A stretch of 35,619 nt of DNA from Chitinophaga pinensis (GCA_945890595.1 CAMDCQ010000002.1:1-35619), one strand, 5' to 3'. Counted from the first letter of the stretch, positions 85-24,323 are shown. The notes: generated by a model not told the origin, from the sequence alone. Numbers and translations: made by a program.

Positions 85-954
85 TCAAATGTAGTTATAG
101 TTAACTTTAGTTGGTTTATTTTCTGGTAAATATTTTTCTTTAGGTGTAATATCTCCTATTCTGGTGTGCCTTCTTTCAGAGTTATAAAAGTGTACATACT
201 CTTTGATTATTTGATAGAGTTCCAAGCCTCCGTTAGGAGGGTTTAGATATATCTTCTCTTGTTTCAAAGACCTCCAGAAACGTTCAATATAAATATTGTC
301 TGTTGCCCTGCCTTTACCATCCATTGAGATCTGTATCTCATTGTCCTTGAGTGTATTTAAGTACAACTCACTCGTGTATTGAGACCCTTGGTCTGAGTTA
401 TGTATCTCCGGTTTTCCGTGCTGATTAATCGTGTCGATTAGTAACTCATTGCACCATTCTTTGGTCATAGTATTAGATAAGCTCCAGCCTAAGATCTTTC
501 TGCTGTAGACATCTATTATGGCAGCCATGTACATATGACCTCTAAACATCGGAATGTAGGTTATATCTGTTTGCCATACTTGGTTAGGCCTTTCTATTTT
601 TAGCCCTGTGAGCAAGTAGGGATAGATATAGCTCGCTTTGTCTCTTACGGTAGTTCTTGGCCTAGCGTAAATCGTCCTTAGGTTCATTTGATGATAAAGC
701 CGCCTGACTCGTTTTTCATTTACTAGATAGCCTAAATCCTTGTTCAGGTAGGTAGTCATTCGTGATACTCCATAGTAGGGATGATCTAAGAAACATTTGT
801 CGATTGCTTGCATCAATCGTTCGTTAAGTGCACTCGCTTTCTTAGGCTTATAATAAATACCAGAACGGCTTATACTCATAAGCTTACAACGCTCATCAAG
901 AGGAAGTCTTGAACGAGTCTGCATAGCACGTTGTCTTTTCTCTGCTAAACTCAT
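85..954 (-). CDS. IS3-family transposase OrfB (DDE integrase core)
   Basis: The 289-aa ORF shows rve-type motifs: WQTDITYI (first Asp), HNSDQGSQYTS (second Asp) and IERFWRSLKQE (Glu). Its ATG overlaps the orfA stop (ATGA). It is probably also expressed as an OrfAB fusion by -1 frameshifting. Confidence 0.9.
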   Translation of the reverse strand: MSLAEKRQRAMQTRSRLPLDERCKLMSISRSGIYYKPKKASALNERLMQAIDKCFLDHPYYGVSRMTTYLNKDLGYLVNEKRVRRLYHQMNLRTIYARPRTTVRDKASYIYPYLLTGLKIERPNQVWQTDITYIPMFRGHMYMAAIIDVYSRKILGWSLSNTMTKEWCNELLIDTINQHGKPEIHNSDQGSQYTSELYLNTLKDNEIQISMDGKGRATDNIYIERFWRSLKQEKIYLNPPNGGLELYQIIKEYVHFYNSERRHTRIGDITPKEKYLPENKPTKVNYNYI

Positions 955-1229
955 TTGTCCAAGACTTTCTTTAAAAAATCAATCTGCATCTGCATATGAC
1001 CTATCTTGTTGTACAACTGTTCGGTGCCAGCTTCCTCCTTTTTGTTAGAAGTTTTAGCTTCAAATACTTCGGATGCATTTGCTAAAAACTCCTTCTTCCA
1101 GTTTACTACCTGACTACTGTGTAAATCGTACTTACTAGCCAAATCTTGTAAAGTCTGCCTCTCTTTAAGGGCTTCTAAGACTACCTTGGCCTTAAACCCT
1201 GAACTGAATTTTCTTCTCTTTTTGCTCAT
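951..1229 (-). CDS. IS3-family transposase OrfA (HTH DNA-binding subunit)
   Basis: The 92-aa ORF starts KRRKFSSGFKAKVVLEALKERQTLQDLASKYDLHSSQVVNWKKEF, the typical IS3 OrfA helix-turn-helix. A leucine-zipper-like C-terminus follows (LYNKIGHMQMQIDFLKKVL). Confidence 0.9.
   Translation of the reverse strand: MSKKRRKFSSGFKAKVVLEALKERQTLQDLASKYDLHSSQVVNWKKEFLANASEVFEAKTSNKKEEAGTEQLYNKIGHMQMQIDFLKKVLDK
972..978 (-). other. Candidate -1 programmed frameshift heptamer (T TTT TTA) linking orfA to orfB
   Basis: The minus strand reads GAT TTT TTA AAG in the orfA frame, which fits the X XXY YYZ pattern. After a -1 slip the orfB frame stays open (FFKESLGQMSLAEK...) with no stop before the orfB ATG. This is inferred from IS3-family biology only. 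Confidence 0.45.
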
Positions 1230-1260
1230 TTAACAATTCAAATGTATTAATCATCTGAAA

Positions 1261-1282
1261 TGTCCTTTTTTTGGGGAGTACT
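1261..1282. repeat. IS3 terminal inverted repeat (orfA-proximal end)
   Basis: The reverse complement is AGTACTCCCCAAAAAAAGGACA, which pairs with 60-81. Confidence 0.7.
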
Positions 1283-1420
1283 ATACTTTCTTCATTAGAT
1301 AAGTACACCTACAGCAATTATAATCTGAGTTGCGTATATTTTAAATAATAAGCTGCTGAGATAGTCTGAAAGTCTTGTTAAATTTGCTTCATATTAGTGA
1401 TAAAATGCTAGTATGTCACT

Positions 1421-1492
1421 GGTTTCATAGTTCAACGGATAGAACGAGCGTTTCCTAAACGCTAAATGAAGGTTCGATTCCTTCTGAGACCA
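1421..1492 (+). tRNA. tRNA-Arg (anticodon CCT)
   Basis: A cloverleaf folds by hand. Acceptor GGTTTCA/TGAGACC has one G-U pair. D stem is GTTC/GAAC with loop AACGGATA. Anticodon stem is AGCGT/ACGCT with loop TTCCTAA (CCT). Variable region is AAAT. T stem is GAAGG/CCTTC with loop TTCGATT. Discriminator is A; CCA is not encoded. Confidence 0.92.
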
Positions 1493-1497
1493 CCCAA

Positions 1498-1535
1498 CGT
1501 AATAGTGGAATTTAGGTTCATTATTACGCTTTTTG
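1498..1535 (+). terminator. Rho-independent terminator after tRNA-Arg
   Basis: A 10-bp stem pairs CGTAATAGTG (1498-1507) with CATTATTACG (1519-1528), including one G-U pair. The loop is 11 nt and is followed by CTTTTTG. Confidence 0.6.
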
Positions 1536-1741
1536 AAGTCATATTGTTTATTTAAAAAGATTTAGTGTAACCTACTAAAAGACAATTATCCCGTTAGTCT
1601 AAAGAATCGAAATAGAGTCTGTGTTCCCTGTTCAGAGCATGGAAAATAGGGTGAAGTTAAGACTAATGAAATCGACTGTATTATGCTCACAAATACCTCA
1701 CAAACGGCTTTAAGGTAAAAATAAAATACTGATATACAATA

Positions 1742-1815
1742 GGTTAAGTGGCTTTATAAACTAAGATTAGAAGTTTCCTAAACTTTACATCCAGGTTGTA
1801 TTCCTAGCGAGGCCA
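1742..1815 (+). pseudogene. Degenerate tRNA-Arg(CCT)-like copy (tRNA pseudogene or relic)
   Basis: The 3-prime 46 nt (1770-1815) align without gaps to tRNA positions 1447-1492 at 32/46. The anticodon loop TTCCTAA is identical. The anticodon stem carries compensatory changes (GAAGT/ACTTT). The D loop lacks GG, the T loop is TTGTATT (no C56), and the acceptor stem has two mismatches. Confidence 0.45.
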
Positions 1816-1876
1816 CTACAGATTGGTGTGTAATCGCTTAACCGCTGCCATTTAACATAGAAATGTGCAATGTTGC

Positions 1877-2158
1877 TTACGTGCCAGATTCATGATTTTT
1901 GGATACCTTTTTGAAGTTAAGTAATGTTTTGATGGTAAATACGTCCCGCTTTATTTCTTCCTTATTTTTTTTATGAAATGGAATGGCTAGTACCTTGCCT
2001 TCTTGAGTAGTAATGTGAACATAATATTTTTCAAATACAATGAAGGATCTTTTGCGAACATATATAGACTTTGTTTGGTTTAAGTCGATATTTTTCAAAT
2101 ACTGGCGTAGTTCTATGATATCCATATTCCACAATGCTGTTTTAATCCGATTTTCCAT
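1877..2158 (-). CDS. Hypothetical small basic protein, paralog of 4930-5193 (partner B1)
   Basis: The 93-aa ORF is 52/83 identical by hand alignment to the 87-aa ORF at 4930-5193 (shared ELRxYLKNIDL...FEKYYV...IPFxKKxKEE.K.DVFTIKTLLNF). Conservation between two copies argues it is a real gene. I recognise no family. Confidence 0.7.
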   Translation of the reverse strand: MENRIKTALWNMDIIELRQYLKNIDLNQTKSIYVRKRSFIVFEKYYVHITTQEGKVLAIPFHKKNKEEIKRDVFTIKTLLNFKKVSKNHESGT

Positions 2159-2623
2159 CTAAGTGATTGTTTTACGATGCAATGGTCTTTTATGCAGGCG
2201 TAAAATTTCAAAAATCTCCACGAAATAACATTTTATGGTATCTTAAGGAAATAGTTAAAACGCGGATAGAGTCACGAGGACCCCTATTTTGTTGAGATAA
2301 GCAACAATTAAACGTATTAAACAGTGCTAATTACTTAGTTTCTGGGTGTCTTTGACGTTTGGTTTTTAGGGTGTTACCAACTAACCTAAACGAATAAAAG
2401 AATTTAAGGAATATGTAGTTTCTTACTTATTTGTTAAACAAATCGTCTAAGAAATACCTTATTTGTAATGATTTGGTAAACAGCGATATTCACCCTAAAC
2501 TTTCTCAAGATACGCGATTGCTCAGAATGCAAGTTTTGCAGCGTAGTGTGTTAAAAATTTACGTCACTTTGGTCCATAATTATCAGTTTGTAATGAAATT
2601 TTCACCTAGTTATTTATAGCGAT

Positions 2624-3721
2624 ATGATTACGTCATCAGAAGATATTCTATTAATTTTGGTCGGTTTTTTACAATTGGTAGTAGCTATTATACTTCTGCT
2701 ATCTTACAAGTCTAACAAATACGTTAATATTTTTCTAGTTCTACTTCTATTGAATGGAGCTGCGAGAGCCTTGTACGGTGGTTTTATGAGTGAGGTATCA
2801 AACACGTTTATAAACCATGATTTTAGCTGGATAAGGCTTTTGCTAGTGCTCACCGCTCCGAACTCGTATTTGTATTTTAAAACGTTAATTAGTGACGAAA
2901 ATCGGTTGAGTCCAAGATTACTCTTCCATTTAATATTCCCTGTTTTATGGACAATTCTGGTCTATGTACAAACTCATTATGGGTTTGTAACGTATGACGC
3001 TTGGCATTCGATACGTAGCATAACTGTTGTAACCTACGTATTTTTTTATTTGGTATTAACACTGCTCATAATTAAGGATTTCTATAAAAACCGTAATCTG
3101 GATTTAAAAAGGGCTAAGCATTTTAATTCTATCAAGAGATGGGTTACTACTCTTCTATTCTTTATTATTTTGGTCAATCTGAGAGCGTTAGTACATTTTG
3201 TATTTGATATTGAAGACCATGGAGGACTTTTTGCAAATGTGTCATCAATACTGAAATTGGTGTTCGTCTTTTTAATCATCTTTAAAATTCTTATCAGTCC
3301 CGAAATACTCTTTGGGTATTCAAAATTGAAAAAAGCGGTTAATAGCGATTCTGAGGGCGAAGTAGGATCAATGTCGTCTGTAGAAAATAAAATTCTAGAA
3401 ATTAATAGTAAATATTATTTGAGAGATAAGCCTATCGAGGATTATTTTGAAGGCAAAACATTGGAATGTCTGTTGTTTCTATTAACTCATAATAGTGAAT
3501 TTGTTCTTGTCAGCAGTTTGGATGATCTATTTGAGTCTGAATACAAAGCTAGCCTTCCAACGTTGAAAAAACGAAGGGAGCAAAGCCTTAAAGAAATTAG
3601 ATTCTTACTCTCATTTAGGTTATACGTTCCAGTTGATTCTATTTTTATAGAAACCCGAGATGAAGTTGATAAGAGAATTAAAATGATAAAATTTAATCCT
3701 GAGTTGCTAAAGTTAGAGTAA
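2624..3721 (+). CDS. 7-TM membrane protein with C-terminal winged-helix-like (OmpR/ToxR-type) domain (regulator A1)
   Basis: The 365-aa ORF has about seven hydrophobic segments in residues 8-224. Residues ~264-365 form the domain shared with 4139-4906 and 5834-6640 (..PIEDYFEGKTLECLLFLL..LDDLF..LPTLKKRREQSLKEI..IFIETRDEVDKRIKMIKFN). Confidence 0.8.
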   Translation: MITSSEDILLILVGFLQLVVAIILLLSYKSNKYVNIFLVLLLLNGAARALYGGFMSEVSNTFINHDFSWIRLLLVLTAPNSYLYFKTLISDENRLSPRLLFHLIFPVLWTILVYVQTHYGFVTYDAWHSIRSITVVTYVFFYLVLTLLIIKDFYKNRNLDLKRAKHFNSIKRWVTTLLFFIILVNLRALVHFVFDIEDHGGLFANVSSILKLVFVFLIIFKILISPEILFGYSKLKKAVNSDSEGEVGSMSSVENKILEINSKYYLRDKPIEDYFEGKTLECLLFLLTHNSEFVLVSSLDDLFESEYKASLPTLKKRREQSLKEIRFLLSFRLYVPVDSIFIETRDEVDKRIKMIKFNPELLKLE

Positions 3722-3951
3722 AACAGCCCAATAGAGTAAAGGTTATTGCGTATGAAGGTCTACATGTTATCACCCGGTTTTCGTTTAGTTAAGTTTCCAA
3801 TTGTATGCAACGAAATAAGGTTAACAGGCCTATTTCCAGCTTGTTAGGTAAGAAGTAATTTGGGTATATAAGTTATGTGGGCTTACAGTGGTCTGCGCAT
3901 TTCTCTTTTCAGATTAGTTATGCCATATCTAAATAATGGTAATTTACTGTG

Positions 3952-4266
3952 ATGATTGGTGGCATAAAATCAAAGTTAATTCCTGAAAAGCGGCAGGCAT
4001 TGAGGTCACATTATCGAACTCTTTCCATTGTTTTTATACTATTTCTTTCGGGGATAGGCAAAGCACAAACGCCACAAATTGCGGTCTCGTTAAAGACCTT
4101 AAGTGTACTAAGCAAATACGACAATACTTTTATGGTTTTTGATGAACCCACTTATTATTGGACCAAAGGGGCTACGGATAAGCGTTGGAAAAAGAACAAC
4201 TATGAATTTAGCTCGTCTGAAATATCGTTTGATAATTTTTCAACATCCTTATATTCTGAGAATTAA
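3952..4266 (+). CDS. N-terminal fragment (signal peptide + start of periplasmic domain) of a probably frameshift-disrupted regulator paralog (A2)
   Basis: The ORF has a signal-like segment (LSIVFILFLSGIGKAQ) analogous to the N-terminus of 5834-6640. It overlaps the +1-shifted ORF 4139-4906, which supplies the missing TM and winged-helix part. ATG is at 3952; the track starts at GTG 3949. Confidence 0.5.
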   Translation: MIGGIKSKLIPEKRQALRSHYRTLSIVFILFLSGIGKAQTPQIAVSLKTLSVLSKYDNTFMVFDEPTYYWTKGATDKRWKKNNYEFSSSEISFDNFSTSLYSEN

Positions 4267-4906
4267 TCCAACAGAGAATATCGTTAAGCGGTACTTTAAT
4301 CAGGATATTAGTGTGCATACCTTGGGACAATTTGATACATCGCAGAGTTACATTCTATTGAGTGATGAAATAGACCACAGTACCATGTTTTATTTGGTTA
4401 AGACGGAGGATGTACTTCATACCTATGTAGATGAAATGAATCTTTACACAGTACAATCAAACATGTGGTGTTTTGTGCTTTTAGGTCTTTTCTCGTTGAG
4501 TGCGGGATACCTAGTATACCGAGGTAAAGTGATTCGAGCACGTCTCCCTAGCGCAAAAAATGCTGTGCATATCACACAAAGCCACGGTTCGTTTTATATC
4601 AATAGACGGCCTTTGGAAGAATACTTCGATGGTTACGCGTTAATCCTGCTTCTTGCATTTTTAAATCGACCAGACGAGAATATTAGCTTGCAAGAGCTCG
4701 ATGATCTATGCAACCCTAAAAGAACTGCCAGTGGTGTGTCTTTGAAAAAACGGAGCGAACATGCATTGCTAACTATAAACGAAAAACTAGCTATCAACCT
4801 TAATTGTGACCCATCGAGTATATTTACAGAAAAGAGGGATATAACAGACAAGCGTCTTAAAATAATAAAGCTAAATACCTCAGAAATACTCCGAGTTCAA
4901 AACTAA
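4139..4906 (+). CDS. C-terminal fragment (periplasmic part, single TM, winged-helix-like domain) of regulator paralog A2; true start unclear
   Basis: It contains a TM helix (MWCFVLLGLFSLSAGYLVY) followed by basic residues, then the shared C-terminal domain (RPLEEYFDGYALILLLAFL..LDDLC..SLKKRSEHALLTI..IFTEKRDITDKRLKIIKLN). It has no signal peptide of its own. Confidence 0.6.
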   Translation: MMNPLIIGPKGLRISVGKRTTMNLARLKYRLIIFQHPYILRINPTENIVKRYFNQDISVHTLGQFDTSQSYILLSDEIDHSTMFYLVKTEDVLHTYVDEMNLYTVQSNMWCFVLLGLFSLSAGYLVYRGKVIRARLPSAKNAVHITQSHGSFYINRRPLEEYFDGYALILLLAFLNRPDENISLQELDDLCNPKRTASGVSLKKRSEHALLTINEKLAINLNCDPSSIFTEKRDITDKRLKIIKLNTSEILRVQN

Positions 4907-4929
4907 TAGTTTAGTTGACGTGATGGATG

Positions 4930-5193
4930 TTACGAAGAAGTGCTCCTGAAATTGAGCAAGGTTTTTATAGTAAAAACATCTTTTTTAACCTCCTCTTTGT
5001 GCTTTTTTCGAAAGGGGATACTCCTTACATTTCCATCGTTATCACAAATATTTACGTAATACTTTTCAAATAAAAAGAAGTTTCTTTTGTGGACATAGAT
5101 ATACTTAAGTTCCTTTAAGTCAATGTTTTTTAAATAATTCCGTAATTCCGTTATCTCCATTCTTTGTAGGTCTGTTTTAGTCTGATGTGTCAT
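4930..5193 (-). CDS. Hypothetical small basic protein, paralog of 1877-2158 (partner B2)
   Basis: The 87-aa ORF is about 63 percent identical to B1. It is convergent with A2 (23-bp gap) and divergent from A3 across 640 bp. Confidence 0.7.
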   Translation of the reverse strand: MTHQTKTDLQRMEITELRNYLKNIDLKELKYIYVHKRNFFLFEKYYVNICDNDGNVRSIPFRKKHKEEVKKDVFTIKTLLNFRSTSS

Positions 5194-5833
5194 GAAATTA
5201 ATAATTAGTTTTTGAGAGGTTTTTGAGTGCTACATTATTTTCATCCAGAAACCATTTCTGTATACTTTTACAAAGCCAGTTAATTACAAAGCGTTTGAAG
5301 AGAAAACTGACGGGTGCCCCACAATAAGCCTTTGGAAGTGGTTTGAGTTTCATAGTCGTTGTACTTCAATTTTATGTCAAATTTTGTCAAAGTCATGAAA
5401 CTGCACTATAATTTTGATAGATATTGAAGTGTAATGAGGTTTCACGTAATTTTTGTCGCTGTACTTACGGACATAAATTGGATTTAATATAAAATAAAGT
5501 GAATGTCAATTCTATGTTTAGCAACGGTTTACCATTTAAAATTACATGTCCTCAGTTTTATCTTGCTCTAGTATGGTTATGTGTTGGTTTTCAGGAGTAT
5601 TTATTATTGTTTAATGTAATATTAGTGATGTTTTTTTGGTTTGCGGTGTAGAAAATCAATGTTAACGTACCCTATAGTTGCTACCTTATTCTTATAAATG
5701 CGGTGTAGTATTGGTGCCAAGTTTTGGTAAAAAATTAAACAAAACCTTCCCATTAAGCGCTAGTATCAAGCTGCGACATAAAATAGTAGCATAGAATAGG
5801 GTAAAATGCATAGATTTGTCATATTCTAGAACT

Positions 5834-6640
5834 ATGAAACTCAGAGCGCGAAACTTTGAAAAAAAAGTAGCATTAAGTGCTATTGTCTTGTTGCTTAGCA
5901 CTTTATGTGTAGCCCAACGTATCGTCATTCATAAAGATTTAATTGACAAAGAATTAGTAGACGATATTAGGTTAGATACTATGGATGCAGTGGTCTATTT
6001 TGAAGATAACCAAGTGAATATTCGTATGACTCCCAGAACAAACCAGCTGGGTAGTGCTCGACGAACGGAAATCTCTACCCTAATACAAAAAAAGGATGTA
6101 AAAACCGATAATGATTCATTATCCATGGTGGTACGGAGTAATGCAGCAGTAATACAGTCTATAAAGAATAGCTCCTTTTATCGCCACAGCGATTATTGGT
6201 TTCTATTGGGTTTTATTTTATTAATCACCACGGTGAGCAGCATTATGTTATACCGAAGAATTACGAGAATTGTACTTAGGGGAAAAAAAACGGAAAGCCA
6301 CATACATCAATATGGAGATAAATATTTTATTGGTAAAAGTCCTATTGAAGAGTTTTTTGTAGGAAAGGAATTAACGTTAATACTACAATTACTCAAAAAT
6401 TCTGAGAAGTACATACCTCTTCAAGATTTGGATGATATCTTTTTGTCAAACGATAAAGTGAGCCCCACAACCTTAAAAAAACGCCGAGAGATTAGTTTGT
6501 TGAACATAATCAGGACACTCGGAATCGTATTTGATCTGCCCCCAGAAAGAATATTCATGATTCGTCGCGATGAAGATGACCAAAGAATTAAATTGATCAA
6601 GTTTAATGCGGAGGAATTATTAAAAGTGAAAAAGCTTTAA
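5834..6640 (+). CDS. Single-pass membrane protein: signal peptide, periplasmic domain, TM, C-terminal winged-helix-like domain (regulator A3)
   Basis: ATG at 5834 gives MKLRARNFEKKVALSAIVLLLSTLCVAQ, a signal peptide; the track start TTG 5816 is less likely. The TM is YWFLLGFILLITTVSSIMLY, followed by RRITR. The C-terminal domain is 44/97 identical to that of A1 by ungapped hand alignment. Confidence 0.8.
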   Translation: MKLRARNFEKKVALSAIVLLLSTLCVAQRIVIHKDLIDKELVDDIRLDTMDAVVYFEDNQVNIRMTPRTNQLGSARRTEISTLIQKKDVKTDNDSLSMVVRSNAAVIQSIKNSSFYRHSDYWFLLGFILLITTVSSIMLYRRITRIVLRGKKTESHIHQYGDKYFIGKSPIEEFFVGKELTLILQLLKNSEKYIPLQDLDDIFLSNDKVSPTTLKKRREISLLNIIRTLGIVFDLPPERIFMIRRDEDDQRIKLIKFNAEELLKVKKL

Positions 6641-6939
6641 AGAAAAATAATGGACATGCATTTATACTTATACTTCTAAAGGAGAATCGTTACACGCTTG
6701 AGCATTAGTCTATATTCCTTGAGTAGGTTTGGATTACATCGTAATTGCATTGCTTCTTCTAAAATCATTTCAAGAATGTATAGGATATTGCATATTATTC
6801 AATCTCACTCGTTTGGTTATTTACGATAATTGGTTTAGATGAAAAGAACGGTGGTGGTGGACGTAAATAGTAATCTAATATCTAGTTGATACGTAGTAAA
6901 GTTTTGTGCAAAAAGTTAAATCTTAACTCGGTTTGAGCG

Positions 6940-7122
6940 CTACTCGGCAGTCACCGGAAAAGTGGCTTGGTCTCTGTATGGCCAAACACCTAGATAGATA
7001 TAATAAGCAAGGTAAGCTACAATAAATAGACAAGCGGTAGCGTAAAGTAGCAACTCAAGCTTCCGAATGGTATCTGAGTGGCATAAAGACCATTTCCGAA
7101 AAAGTGAAATAAACGTTTTCAT
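6940..7122 (-). CDS. Hypothetical small membrane protein (one TM)
   Basis: The 60-aa ORF has one clear hydrophobic helix (LLLYATACLFIVAYLAYYIYLGVW). It lies 139 bp downstream of, and on the same strand as, 7262-7606. There is no other support. Confidence 0.35.
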   Translation of the reverse strand: MKTFISLFRKWSLCHSDTIRKLELLLYATACLFIVAYLAYYIYLGVWPYRDQATFPVTAE

Positions 7123-7261
7123 CCTATTTTATAAATTTTCTGATTCAATTATACTGACACACTGCTCATTCGTTTCAAAATTTGCAGGAAATTATACTCT
7201 CGTGTATTATCTATCCCCAGGAACAATGATTTAAATGAGTTTAAACGTATGAATTACGCAG

Positions 7262-7606
7262 TCAAATCTCGAGTTCCCAACACAAGCCAAATTCATCTAC
7301 TAATTTCTTTTGTTGAATAGACGCATCATAAATCCCATTGGTTATGTTCATCTTGATTGTGTCCACCTCAGTAAATAGGTGTATGAGCTCATAAACATCA
7401 GTAACGCGATGCGATTTGCATATCGCCGCAATATTCTGGAGTAACGTTGCGTGATCACCAATGGGAGGCGTATAGTATGTTCGCGCTTGTAGATCTAGTA
7501 TAATGTGTACCAAAAAAGCAGGTTTATAATCCTTCCAATTACAAAGTATTTCCAGTAATACAGCCGGTTCAATAAGGTGAAGTGTATTTTGATTTAAGTG
7601 CTTCAT
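7262..7606 (-). CDS. Hypothetical protein (114 aa)
   Basis: This is the only long ORF in its region and has balanced composition. I recognise no motif. Confidence 0.55.
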   Translation of the reverse strand: MKHLNQNTLHLIEPAVLLEILCNWKDYKPAFLVHIILDLQARTYYTPPIGDHATLLQNIAAICKSHRVTDVYELIHLFTEVDTIKMNITNGIYDASIQQKKLVDEFGLCWELEI

Positions 7607-21091: not shown

Positions 21092-22558
21092 TTATTTTTT
21101 ATCTAGGTCTGCTAAGAACTTTTCTGCTTTGTGCAGATAGACATCCATTTTTGACCCTTCCATCTTCCTAGCCATACTCACCATCATGCTCATACGTCTA
21201 TTTTTACTAAATTCTTCTTGATTTCCGTAAATGAATCTCCAATATAAGGAGTTCCATACTTCGCACCAGTCTCCCTTGTCGTAGTCGCTCATTTTTAGCA
21301 CGTAGTTGCTACCACTACAGTATGGTTTGGTCGTCATTAGTCCACCATCAGCATACTGCGTCATTCCGTATACATTGGGTACCATTACCCAATCATAGGC
21401 ATCCACATACATTTCCATAAACCACCGGTGCACCTCATCGGGGTCAAATTCGCAGAGTAGCATAAAATTACCAAAAAGCATTAGCCTCTCTATGTGGTGG
21501 GAATAACCTGTTTTCAGAAGCTTTTTTATGGTTTCATCTAGTGGAGTTATGCCCGTATCTCCTGTCCAGAAACTTTCGGGTATTTTTCGCGAGTACCCAA
21601 AATGATTTGTAGTTCTTTGTTTTACACCCTCTAGTAAGTACACTCCACGAATAAATTCTCGCCAGCCTAGTATTTGCCTAATAAATCCTTCAAGGCTATT
21701 CAAAGGAAAGTCGTGCTTCTTATGTGCATTCAGTACTACATTTATAACCTGCTTAGGATTTAATAGACCTATGTTAAGCATGGGAGTAAGTACCGAGTGC
21801 CAAAGCCAGTGTTCCTCTTTAACCATAGCATCCTCGTAGTCTCCAAAATGCTCAAATCGTTCTTGTATAAATAGATGTAAATGTTCTTCTGCGTCAGCAT
21901 GCGTGACAGCATAGTACGATTCATCTAAATCTCCATAGTTGTCTTTGAAATGTTTTTCAACGTATATTTTAGCTTCGTTGACGTAGGTATTGGAATTGGG
22001 AAGTTTTACGTTTGGAATTGGTGTACCCTTAGGCACCTTCTTTCTATTTTCGGTATCAAAACTCCATTTGCCTCCTAATGGTTTTTCGTTTTCCTCCAAC
22101 AGGATGTTATGTTTCTTGCGTGATTCTGTATAGAAGTTTGCCAAAAAATAGCTTTTCTGCTTATTGAGCATTTCTGCTACTTCTGATTCCGTATTTATAA
22201 AATTGGGATTAGTATATCGAATTAGCTTGATGCTAAGCTTTTTTGCATAACGGTTAAGTCTTCGTTCTAGCAGATAATCATCGGTAAGGTAGCAATGAAT
22301 TTCATGATCTTTTAACTCGGTGAGTAATTTCTCAATTCCGAGGTAATCTGTAACTGGAATGTATCTTACGTCTGAGTTAATCGAAATTAAATCTGCATAG
22401 TATTTCATGCTGGCCCTGTGAAGGAGCAGCTTCTGTTTGTGAAATTTATAGTGTGTAAAGTAAAGGTGGTCCTCAATTAGGTAAACAACATCACAGTTAG
22501 TTACGACCTTAGATTCTTTAAATAGCTGATGCGGAAATACAATACCTACTTTTTTCAT
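21092..22558 (-). CDS. Cryptochrome/photolyase-family protein of the photolyase-related (FeS-BCP / bacterial 6-4 photolyase-like, COG3046-type) group
   Basis: The 488-aa protein shows GWREFIRGVY, TGYSHHIERLM, DAYDWVMVPNVYGM and TKPYCSGSNYVLKMSDY, patterns typical of this family. Its start overlaps the upstream gene by 4 nt. Confidence 0.8.
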   Translation of the reverse strand: MKKVGIVFPHQLFKESKVVTNCDVVYLIEDHLYFTHYKFHKQKLLLHRASMKYYADLISINSDVRYIPVTDYLGIEKLLTELKDHEIHCYLTDDYLLERRLNRYAKKLSIKLIRYTNPNFINTESEVAEMLNKQKSYFLANFYTESRKKHNILLEENEKPLGGKWSFDTENRKKVPKGTPIPNVKLPNSNTYVNEAKIYVEKHFKDNYGDLDESYYAVTHADAEEHLHLFIQERFEHFGDYEDAMVKEEHWLWHSVLTPMLNIGLLNPKQVINVVLNAHKKHDFPLNSLEGFIRQILGWREFIRGVYLLEGVKQRTTNHFGYSRKIPESFWTGDTGITPLDETIKKLLKTGYSHHIERLMLFGNFMLLCEFDPDEVHRWFMEMYVDAYDWVMVPNVYGMTQYADGGLMTTKPYCSGSNYVLKMSDYDKGDWCEVWNSLYWRFIYGNQEEFSKNRRMSMMVSMARKMEGSKMDVYLHKAEKFLADLDKK

Positions 22559-23115
22559 ATTATAATAATTCCTTCAGCGGGATTTCCTATTTCTTGATGT
22601 CTGTTCTCTTGGTGTCGAGTCCCAATAAGCAGGGCAATAAGCGCGTCTACTTGATGCCAATTTTGAGGTTGTTGGGCTAAAACAAAACGTTCTTTATGGT
22701 GTAATTCAGCTATAAATAAATGTATATCTACTTTATAATGAACACTTTGAACTATTTCAGATTGGAAGAAAGCAGGGTATATCTCGTGAAAGGTTAATGC
22801 TTTTAAAGCGTGTTTAAGACTCATCGCTCTTGCAGTTAATCCGCCTAAAAACATAGGTGACATAGCACGTGTTAATTTATCTGCTTCTCGATAATGATAG
22901 CTGTCCCCATTATTATAATACGCCGCCGGTAAACTTAAAGGAGCATCTAAATAGACAATATCAGCATGCAGAAATATCAACTCATTTCGGAGCCAAGCAT
23001 CAGCATCTTTTTTTTTGTCTACTTGACTAAAGGTGACTTGGTCATTAGTGTAATGAGCTAATACAGTATTACCGCTCATTTTAGCACCATAGTCTATGCC
23101 AACTATTTTAGCCAT
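22555..23115 (-). CDS. RNase H-fold-like protein (YqgF/RuvX- or DUF429-like N-terminal motif)
   Basis: The 186-aa protein has an N-terminal [13 protein letters not shown] acidic motif and later IVYLDAPLSLP and HQVDALIALL. It is translationally coupled to both flanking photolyase-family genes. Confidence 0.6.
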   Translation of the reverse strand: MAKIVGIDYGAKMSGNTVLAHYTNDQVTFSQVDKKKDADAWLRNELIFLHADIVYLDAPLSLPAAYYNNGDSYHYREADKLTRAMSPMFLGGLTARAMSLKHALKALTFHEIYPAFFQSEIVQSVHYKVDIHLFIAELHHKERFVLAQQPQNWHQVDALIALLIGTRHQENRHQEIGNPAEGIIII

Positions 23116-24323
23116 AGTTTTCTATACGTACCTTCGCTATCATAGCGTTCAGCTTGTAATTTTGTGTTGAATTTTCTGAATGGTCTAGCATCGTGACCAA
23201 CTCCAGCGATATACATCCAATTTCCCCAGTTACTTGCGGGATCATAATCTACCAATGCGCTTTCAAAATAAGCTGCACCCCATCGCCAATCTTGTTTTAA
23301 ATCGTGTATCAGAAAGCTAGCAGTATTCTGTCTTCCTCTATTACTCATCCAGCTTGTAGTATTTAACTCACGCATATTAGCATCAACTAAATCATCGCCA
23401 GTATTACCTTGCATCCATTTTTCAAATGCTGCCGTGTTGCTGGTGTAACGTATTTGTTTTTGCTGAATGCCACCTACTTGAAAAAATAACGATCCCCATA
23501 ATTGCAGTTGTAATTGAAAAAAATCTCTCCACAGTAATTCATAAATAAGCCAATACGTTGATTTATTGGATTCTATTTCTTCTTCGTATCGCACTATATA
23601 ATCAAAAATAGTACGTGGTGTTATGTTACCTATGGCGAGCCAAGGAGATAATCTACTAGAAAAGTCTGTGCCCAACATTCCGTTTCTAGTTAATTCGTAC
23701 GTAGATAGAAGCTGAGATTCTGTAAAGTAGTATGTTAACCTGTTTAACGCTTGAGTCTCGCCGCCAACCAGGTTATAGGTTGTACTTACAGTTGGAAGCA
23801 AGGGTAATTGTATGGTTTCTTGATACGCTCCTTCAGCACCTACAGCATTTTTAAATTGCGTAAATACGGACGGCATATTATCCAGCGTAAATGGTAAGTT
23901 GTTTTTATCGACTAGCGTAAAATCATCAAATACGTAGGTTGTTCCCTTAAAAATAGATGTTATTGATTGCTCGATACTTAGTTCCTCTGTGCCATAAAGT
24001 TTCTGGTAACTGAGCACTTCGTTATTTAACACAGTGCTTGCTATTAATTCCTCCACACTTTGAAATATATGAAGTTGAACATGTAAAGAACTTAAAGAGT
24101 CTCGCAATTCTTGGAGGGATTGTTCCAAAAATAATTTACGGTGATTTCCGATTTTTGGAAATCCCAAATTGAACACCGATTCTATTTCTTTTTCATGCAC
24201 ATAAAATGCAGTGACGGTTGAAAATGAGCCAAGATTTGAAAAAATGGCATGATCGTTTACCCGTTGGTCTTTTCTAAACCAATGTACAATGCTTTTATTT
24301 TTTAGTTCTTCTACAACGCTCAC
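23103..24323 (-). CDS. Cryptochrome DASH-type photolyase-family protein
   Basis: The N-terminus has [14 protein letters not shown]. The C-terminus has [52 protein letters not shown]; the MSNRGRQ signature is typical of Cry-DASH. The start codon is GTG. Confidence 0.85.

Follow-up and report, generated by a model that had tools for sequence, protein, structure and literature searches.

What are three neighboring genes of Chitinophaga pinensis that encode one common C-terminal domain behind three different N-terminal parts, and what do the small genes facing them do? One-component regulators that are anchored in the membrane and carry an OmpR-type domain are well documented, and hybrid two-component systems, SusR-like regulators and extracytoplasmic function (ECF) sigma/anti-sigma regulators are well known from Bacteroidota. 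The genes in question lie in an islet at 1877-6640 of a 35,619-nt stretch (hereafter the window; all positions count from its start), where the plus-strand genes A1, A2 and A3 are accompanied by the minus-strand genes B1 and B2 (Table 1). A first-pass annotation had described them as a triplicated, two-part unit of membrane-tethered winged-helix regulators and small basic proteins. Our map of open reading frames (ORFs) reproduced the positions of all five genes, and the spacers between the divergent pairs measure exactly the 465 and 640 bp reported there. The analysis presented here indicates that A1, A3 and, before its decay, A2 are probably membrane-integrated one-component transcription regulators, members of a Bacteroidota-restricted family whose sensor paralogues have been gathered in a variable locus.

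The common domain comprises the C-terminal ~110 amino acids (aa) of A1, A2 and A3. Using BLASTP, the domains of A1 and A3 were found identical at 50 of 114 positions (44%, E-value = 3e-21) and those of A1 and A2 at 38% (E-value = 9e-18), while A2 and A3 present 36% identity over 151 aa, a stretch that includes the transmembrane (TM) helix (E-value = 1e-24). The N-terminal halves did not match one another with the same algorithm, which agrees with the initial description of three regulators with a common C-terminal domain and unrelated N-terminal halves. Scans of A1, A2, A3, B1, B2 and a third small gene, named C, against Pfam, NCBIfam, PHROGs and PADLOC returned nothing above noise.

An AlphaFold2 (AF2) model of the A1 domain, built from an 8-sequence alignment, reached a pLDDT of 91.9 and a pTM of 0.84, with the order beta-beta-(beta)-alpha1-alpha2-alpha3-beta-beta-beta (strands E4-7 and E10-13, helices H24-35, H43-50 and H58-80, strands E88-92, E100-104 and E109-111). 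The predicted structure thus shows an N-terminal antiparallel sheet, three helices of which alpha2 and alpha3 form a helix-turn-helix (HTH), and a C-terminal hairpin wing; its recognition helix is long (23 residues) and begins with KKRRE. Foldseek against the PDB gave DNA-bound CosR of the OmpR family as the best full-length match (TM-score 0.58 over 109/112 columns), followed by MarR, SarA and forkhead winged helices, the remaining top matches being all winged-helix regulators, and no match reached E ≤ 1e-3.

Concerning profile comparisons, a three-sequence profile had no matches in the PDB, and a 48-sequence profile had OmpR-family regulators as six of its seven best matches, at E-values of 0.013-0.12. 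Specifically, the top six distinct sequences were CosR (two constructs), the HP1043-like 2hqn and ArlR (three constructs), with the response regulator 1p2f, a MarR-family chain and 2hqr at ranks 7-9. The OmpR-family matches had E-values from 0.013 to 0.17 and stayed in register between the N-terminal strands and helix 3, both included. When the family profile was aligned by hhalign with the DNA-binding domains of Escherichia coli PhoB, OmpR, BasR, CreB, ArcA and CadC, it scored 33.9 (probability 81%, P = 1.2e-5), about 14 standard deviations above 60 column shuffles (9.9 ± 1.7, maximum 14.8); the reversed alignment scored 11.0. Trans_reg_C was the sole Pfam family to recur among members scanned singly, in 4 of 48 and below threshold (best E-value = 0.0065). 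Those residues that hardly vary across the family, K63, R65, R98 and K100, are basic and stand where the recognition helix begins and in the wing, within a signature of T-[LV]-K-K-R-R-E opening that helix and D-K-R-[IM]-K in the wing. As modeled, the C-terminal domain of A1-A3 is a strongly diverged OmpR/PhoB-type winged helix, invisible to curated models.

The sensor of A1 connects this domain to a known kind of output. The profile of its 7-TM domain, which applies to A1 alone, matches proteins of ~385 aa with E-values down to 7e-51, and the C-termini of these proteins are HTH_18/HTH_AraC domains. HTH_18 was found in P0197, P0201, P0207 and P0209, and proteins of the P0197, P0201 and P0207 type bear the JGI label 'AraC-like DNA-binding protein'. 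In a pairwise comparison, residues 1-239 of A1 present 34% identity with the N-terminal domain of P0197 (E-value = 9e-42), the juxtamembrane motif SPEILFG included, and residues 299-379 of P0197 are its AraC HTH_18, a domain that a Pfam scan did not find in A1. Since the A1 sensor is homologous to that of AraC HTH proteins, the predicted winged helix occupies the slot of a DNA-binding output, and we infer that it too binds DNA. Hydropathy and the distribution of lysine and arginine predict seven TM segments for A1, N-terminus out and C-terminus in. By hydropathy, A2 and A3 have one TM segment after a signal sequence, with the C-terminal domain directly behind it, and counts of lysine and arginine together with hydropathy place a K/R-rich segment after the last TM in all three, from which we infer a cytoplasmic location of the domain. 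A receiver domain (Response_reg, REC) was not matched in any of them, the N-terminal parts being membrane or Kelch domains. The initial proposal of an OmpR/PhoB/ToxR-type winged helix on the cytoplasmic side, just after the last TM, is therefore supported by the AF2 model with Foldseek, the PDB profile, hhalign with its shuffles and the exchange with the AraC HTH.

A winged-helix-like fold could also be put to non-transcriptional use, in protein-protein contact, as a membrane-proximal scaffold or as an anti-sigma-like or signaling adaptor. The similarity to the OmpR family is weak, the wing is divergent, no operator motif was found and the A1 domain is acidic overall, with an isoelectric point (pI) of 5.6, all of which would suit such a role; however, the domain replaces an AraC HTH behind a homologous sensor, its near-invariant residues at the recognition helix and wing are basic, and its structural neighbors are all DNA-binding regulators, so that we regard this alternative as quite improbable. 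Several results nevertheless weigh against a reading of the A proteins as transcription regulators with B and C beside them. Pfam Trans_reg_C (PF00486) did not match A1, A2c or A3 even at E ≤ 1, and similarity to the OmpR family in databases stays below conventional significance (best E-value 0.026 for Foldseek and 0.013 for the PDB profile). The fold was predicted from an alignment that, at eight sequences, is shallow, and the hhalign match spans the beta-sheet and the three helices, leaving the wing uncovered. Operator-like repeats in the spacers and k-mers common to the spacers of five loci did not exceed shuffled sequence, a result that neither supports nor excludes DNA binding by the A domain. 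The AF2 model of the B family, made on B2 (pLDDT 87, alpha-alpha-beta3-alpha), gave heterogeneous, non-significant matches in the PDB and a viral structure library and hence no informative homologue or fold, and the role proposed below for B and C has gene order as its sole basis.

If the A proteins are one-component regulators, an extracytoplasmic or intramembrane sensor would be joined, via the last TM and a short juxtamembrane linker, to the cytoplasmic C-terminal domain. A1 would sense through its 7-TM bundle, A3 through a short ectodomain and the ancestor of A2 through a Kelch beta-propeller. A perceived signal might then alter the dimerization or orientation of the tethered domains, and these, held at the membrane, would bind nearby promoters in the manner of ToxR and CadC, although the A proteins have the reverse polarity. 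In this genome, several paralogues differing in their sensors have gathered in a variable locus; a lipoprotein gene bounds it, as does metG in the relatives L001 and L006.

The family extends well beyond this locus. A HMMER search of 1.84 billion representatives gave 207 clusters at E ≤ 1e-3 (counted at 50% identity), and architectures were surveyed in the best 153 of these 207. The domain is C-terminal in all 153 representatives. A Kelch-type ectodomain is present in 91 of the 153, with a median length of 455 aa and the order signal peptide, Kelch propeller, one TM and domain; seven are of the 7-TM type of A1, and most others are short fragments. All members are named 'hypothetical protein' in their sources. 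The named carrier genomes are all Bacteroidota (Bacteroidia, Sphingobacteriales, Polaribacter, Flavobacterium, Flavobacteriaceae and Fluviicola), and no relatives were detected among the 2.9 million viral contigs of IMG/VR. At five flavobacterial loci, the Kelch-type member has as its neighbor a protein of ~340-370 aa with a Laminin_G_3 domain (concanavalin A-like lectin; LamG) and a C-terminal sorting domain of the type IX secretion system (T9SS). This arrangement hints that the LamG/T9SS protein is a candidate regulatory target of Kelch-type members, which would then control secreted surface proteins.

Within the window, A2 is a decayed member of this Kelch type. The frameshift noted at first is real and is explained by a deletion of the propeller core: residues 1-96 of P0027 (480 aa) match 3952-4239 (frame 1) and residues 255-476 match 4232-4891 (frame 2), leaving A2 without ~158 aa, the core of the propeller. 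A2 is either a pseudogene or the source of a truncated 254-aa product, TM plus C-terminal domain, starting from 4139/4142, and its structure recurs in the independent assembly L023. A3 measures 268 aa from the ATG at 5834 or 274 aa from the upstream TTG at 5816, and among the 153 family representatives its architecture has no second case outside this lineage.

The three genes do not represent a triplicated unit. Their sensors differ (7-TM in A1, decayed Kelch in A2, short ectodomain in A3), and when the DNA of the A1 and A3 units is compared, alignment is limited to the B coding regions and short pieces coding for the C-terminal domain, at 68-79%; this confinement of the likeness to coding parts shows that the paralogues are old. 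The two spacers were also considered as duplicated DNA, which was rejected as they do not align. Additionally, L001, a close relative with flanks 95% identical, has a single A3 and B at this site, where only C, the 60-aa ORF of Table 1, A3 and B lie between the lipoprotein gene and metG. At the equivalent site, the more distant L006 (Bacteroidia bacterium M30B35) has a single A1-like gene and encodes a 591-aa secreted protein, and L010 bears C plus a full-length Kelch-type gene, its contig ending there. On the side of the lipoprotein gene, the window and L010 differ once more, the window having all of these contents. The content of A-family genes thus differs from relative to relative, which makes the site a variable hotspot. 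It is bounded by metG in L001 and L006; the window lacks metG, and that side is disrupted by an IS3-family insertion sequence (IS). The block B1-A1-A2 together with the IS3 element is an addition in the window, and the spacer between B and metG in L001 matches the sequence downstream of B1 and not of B2. Duplication of the regulators themselves is recurrent, as tandem A1-like 7-TM genes stand opposite a C-B pair in L004/L029 (1839-4057, 358 + 357 aa) and in L021 (3-2288, 322 aa, cut, + 372 aa).

Concerning the small genes, B1 and B2 are related, as first reported, being 61.6% identical over 86 aa (BLASTP, E-value = 7e-36) and head-to-head with A1 and A3. The B family is small, with 14 clusters among 5.8 billion proteins and pI values of 9.6-9.9, and a JGI metagenome scan found two loci, the only gain being a longer copy of a known one. 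An A gene stands divergently upstream of B in every B-bearing contig with enough flank, that is in the window (twice), L001, L004/L029, L021 and L022. The converse does not hold: B was absent within 6 kb of A homologues at all 15 named genome loci, and the dominant Kelch-type members are without B and have other neighbors, so B is not the general partner of A that had been supposed. The supposed two-part unit was also incomplete, because the third small family, C, co-occurs with A and B. In L004/L029, L021 and L022, the gene immediately upstream of B encodes a C homologue of 85-102 aa (E-values from 7e-10 to 1e-6); in L021 and L022 the two form a tight C-B pair with a 27-nt gap opposite A1-like genes, and C adjoins the A gene in L001 and L010. 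Purifying selection, one of the checks attached to the first-pass annotation, was found. Against the L001 orthologs, the ratio of non-synonymous to synonymous substitution rates (dN/dS) is 0.33 for A3, 0.13 for B2 and 0.39 for C, compared with 0.04-0.21 for housekeeping neighbors; they are genuine genes on which purifying selection is somewhat relaxed. For A1, the polymorphic tract described below, with 15 synonymous against 5 non-synonymous changes, speaks for selection as well. The 60-aa ORF between A3 and C, whose dN/dS is given in Table 1, is for that reason probably not under selection at the protein level.

These associations could be taken for an obligate module of A, B and C that duplicates whole, B and C gating the tethered winged helix as cytoplasmic counterparts of ToxS, TcpH or PsaF. 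The constant divergent position of B in informative contigs, the C-B pairs of L021 and L022, the two A-B pairs of the window and the strong constraint on B2 are in its favor, but it has to face the 15 named genomes without a nearby B, the A1-like gene that stands alone at the equivalent chromosomal site in L006 and the Kelch-type majority with its other neighbors. Moreover, B and C have no TM segment and therefore cannot act like ToxS, and the unrelated sensors of the three window A genes argue against duplication of a unit. We consider this module unlikely. B and C are small cytoplasmic proteins of a narrow lineage, encoded divergently from an A gene, and most likely the C-B genes are regulated locally by the A protein next to them or supply accessory factors particular to the lineage; they are not an obligatory partner. 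Equally doubtful, in our judgment, is a broader proposal in which an 'inverted ToxR' class is phylum-wide in Bacteroidota and one lineage recruited B, with a new fold, and C as dedicated cofactors, giving a three-part membrane-to-DNA module whose sensors diversified by paralogue accumulation and patchwise recombination at the hotspot.

The long spacers may themselves be graves of C genes. In L022 the distance from A to B is 498 bp, near the 465 bp of the first window spacer, and is filled by the 85-aa C gene. In the 640-bp spacer, a weak tblastn match to residues 20-45 of the L022 C protein (42% identity, E-value = 0.17, with stop codons) lies at ~5335-5412 on the minus strand, just upstream of B2, where C stands elsewhere, and translates as IIVQFHDFDK, its QFHDFDK resembling the C motif QWHDYDK. 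No remnant of C was detectable in the 465-bp spacer, and we propose this origin tentatively. A scan for sigma-70 promoters returned 32 sites, with 28.6 ± 5.1 expected, and is uninformative, this promoter type being the wrong one for Bacteroidota.

The composition and surroundings of the islet raise the further alternative of mobile-element cargo, or of a defense or toxin-antitoxin-like island in which the A proteins would act as effectors in the membrane and B as a toxin or antitoxin. The GC content is 33.9% across 1877-6640 and 37.8% from 7262 to the window end, so the islet, first called AT-rich, is below its flank but only mildly so. Likewise, the reported absence of a recombinase is true of the islet itself but not of its immediate neighborhood, where the IS3-family element lies ~650 bp away from B1. 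The adjacent IS, the lower GC, the varying content of the site among relatives, the patchy distribution and the clustered polymorphisms described below are what such an island might present. Nevertheless, A, B and C have no PADLOC, PHROGs, Pfam or NCBIfam family, in keeping with the initial statement that no known toxin or defense domain is present; viral contigs yielded no relatives; inverted or direct repeats bounding the islet were searched for and none was found; the A3-B pair is kept in place in a relative without the IS; and the A family has the architecture of regulators. We therefore judge a mobile or defense island highly improbable and retain the interpretation as regulators collected at a hotspot.

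The whole arrangement recurs in the independent assembly L023, which is 99.78% identical to the window over 12.5 kb and whose contig stops at window position 1198, within the 5' end of orfA of the IS, suggesting that the IS is multi-copy in the genome. Between the two, 25 of 27 differences fall within two patches, 2659-2924 and 4295-4308. The first, of 266 nt in the A1 membrane domain, holds 20 differences (15 synonymous and 5 non-synonymous), and the second, of 14 nt in A2c, holds five. This clustering fits recombination or gene-conversion tracts, or strain mixing in the assembly, rather than point mutation. Mutagenesis by a diversity-generating retroelement was considered for the A2c differences and rejected as unlikely, since the substitutions are not adenine-specific.

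Table 1. Coordinates of the genes, spacers and neighboring features of the islet and of the compared loci (window positions unless another locus is named).
Feature	Position	Strand	Description
A1	2624-3721	+	365 aa; 7-TM sensor, residues 1-239; SPEILFGY juxtamembrane linker; C-terminal domain residues ~253-365, nt ~3380-3718
A2	3949-4906 (3949-4266 plus 4139-4906, two frames)	+	Degraded Kelch-type family member
A3	5834-6640	+	Signal peptide/anchor, ~95-aa ectodomain, one TM (residues 123-139); C-terminal domain nt ~6296-6637
B1	1877-2158	-	93-aa basic (pI 9.9) cytoplasmic protein, B family
B2	4930-5193	-	87-aa basic protein, B family; ortholog of the single B in L001
Spacer B1/A1	2159-2623		465 bp, divergent genes on either side
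Spacer B2/A3	5194-5833		640 bp, divergent genes on either side; possible C-like remnant ~5335-5412 (-)
C	7262-7606	-	114-aa acidic (pI 5.6) soluble protein; third co-occurring family
60-aa hydrophobic ORF	6940-7122	-	Position kept between A3 and C in window, L001 and L010; dN/dS 0.92; doubtful gene
IS3-family element, complete	85-1229	-	orfA 951-1229, orfB 85-954; Pfam rve (2.5e-25), HTH_21, HTH_Tnp_1
Lipoprotein, 151 aa	7778-8233	-	Lipobox-like LPAC; several conserved cysteines; adjoins the hotspot in all relatives
Hotspot interval, window	~1230-7260
Hotspot interval, L001	7354-10448
Hotspot interval, L006	2985-6482
Hotspot interval, L010	1-2738
LamG/T9SS protein, L011	3735-4772
LamG/T9SS protein, L017	6435-7460
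LamG/T9SS protein, L018	2286-3305
LamG/T9SS protein, L019	2084-3088
LamG/T9SS protein, L020	6455-7564

Apart from the genes discussed above, the lipoprotein that adjoins the hotspot was matched in NCBIfam, weakly and below threshold, by Rieske-type ferredoxin subunits (HcaC, E-value = 0.011). Farther along the window, a minus-strand trio of adjacent ORFs at 21092-24323 includes a photolyase-related DPRP protein (21092-22558) and a DNA photolyase/cryptochrome (23103-24323), which bear no relation to the A, B and C genes.

What is new here is an unannotated, Bacteroidota-restricted family for which neither Pfam nor NCBIfam has a model, with new architectures, an exchange of output from AraC to a predicted winged helix, and the small proteins B and C joined to it in a single lineage. 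The first-pass statement that no counterpart had been described thus stands for annotation and architecture but not for the domain itself, which falls within a well-known superfamily. The A family would form a separate class in which a periplasmic Kelch propeller or a 7-TM bundle is wired directly to a cryptic OmpR-like domain, with a polarity opposite to that of ToxR and CadC. Modeled as a profile, the domain would serve to annotate a few hundred protein clusters and would lead to their targets, and the swap behind one sensor offers a clean natural exchange of output domains. No concept is overturned by these data; their value lies in annotation and in the understanding of Bacteroidota signaling, and they are not conceptually surprising.

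Among known systems, ToxR-like receptors are single polypeptides in which a sensor outside the cytoplasm is linked across the membrane to a cytoplasmic OmpR-type winged helix (PMC5430869), and the A proteins would resemble ToxR, CadC, TcpP and PsaE in joining a sensor, a TM and a predicted cytoplasmic OmpR-type winged helix in a single chain. For the DNA-binding domain of CadC, a topology with an extra C-terminal strand is reported (PMC5430869), and the predicted fold of the A1 domain matches it, third C-terminal strand included. Unlike these receptors, the A proteins have the sensor at the N-terminus and the predicted DNA-binding domain at the C-terminus, their sensor is of the Kelch-propeller, 7-TM-bundle or short-ectodomain type, their domain is too diverged for Pfam Trans_reg_C and their phylum is Bacteroidota; moreover, B and C are soluble, whereas ToxS, TcpH and PsaF are membrane partners. 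With the effector domains of OmpR/PhoB response regulators (PF00486), the predicted domain has in common the order of sheet, alpha1-alpha3 and hairpin and a profile match in register from the sheet through the recognition helix. It differs from them in staying below the Pfam threshold, in a wing that carries DKR[IM]K in place of the usual RG-GY and in a 23-residue recognition helix that starts with KKRRE, and the A proteins have neither a receiver domain nor a partner kinase. Finally, the 7-TM AraC HTH regulators of Bacteroidota (P0197, P0201 and P0207) possess an N-terminal 7-TM domain and an SPEILFG motif homologous to those of A1, whereas their output is an AraC HTH_18 and not a winged helix.

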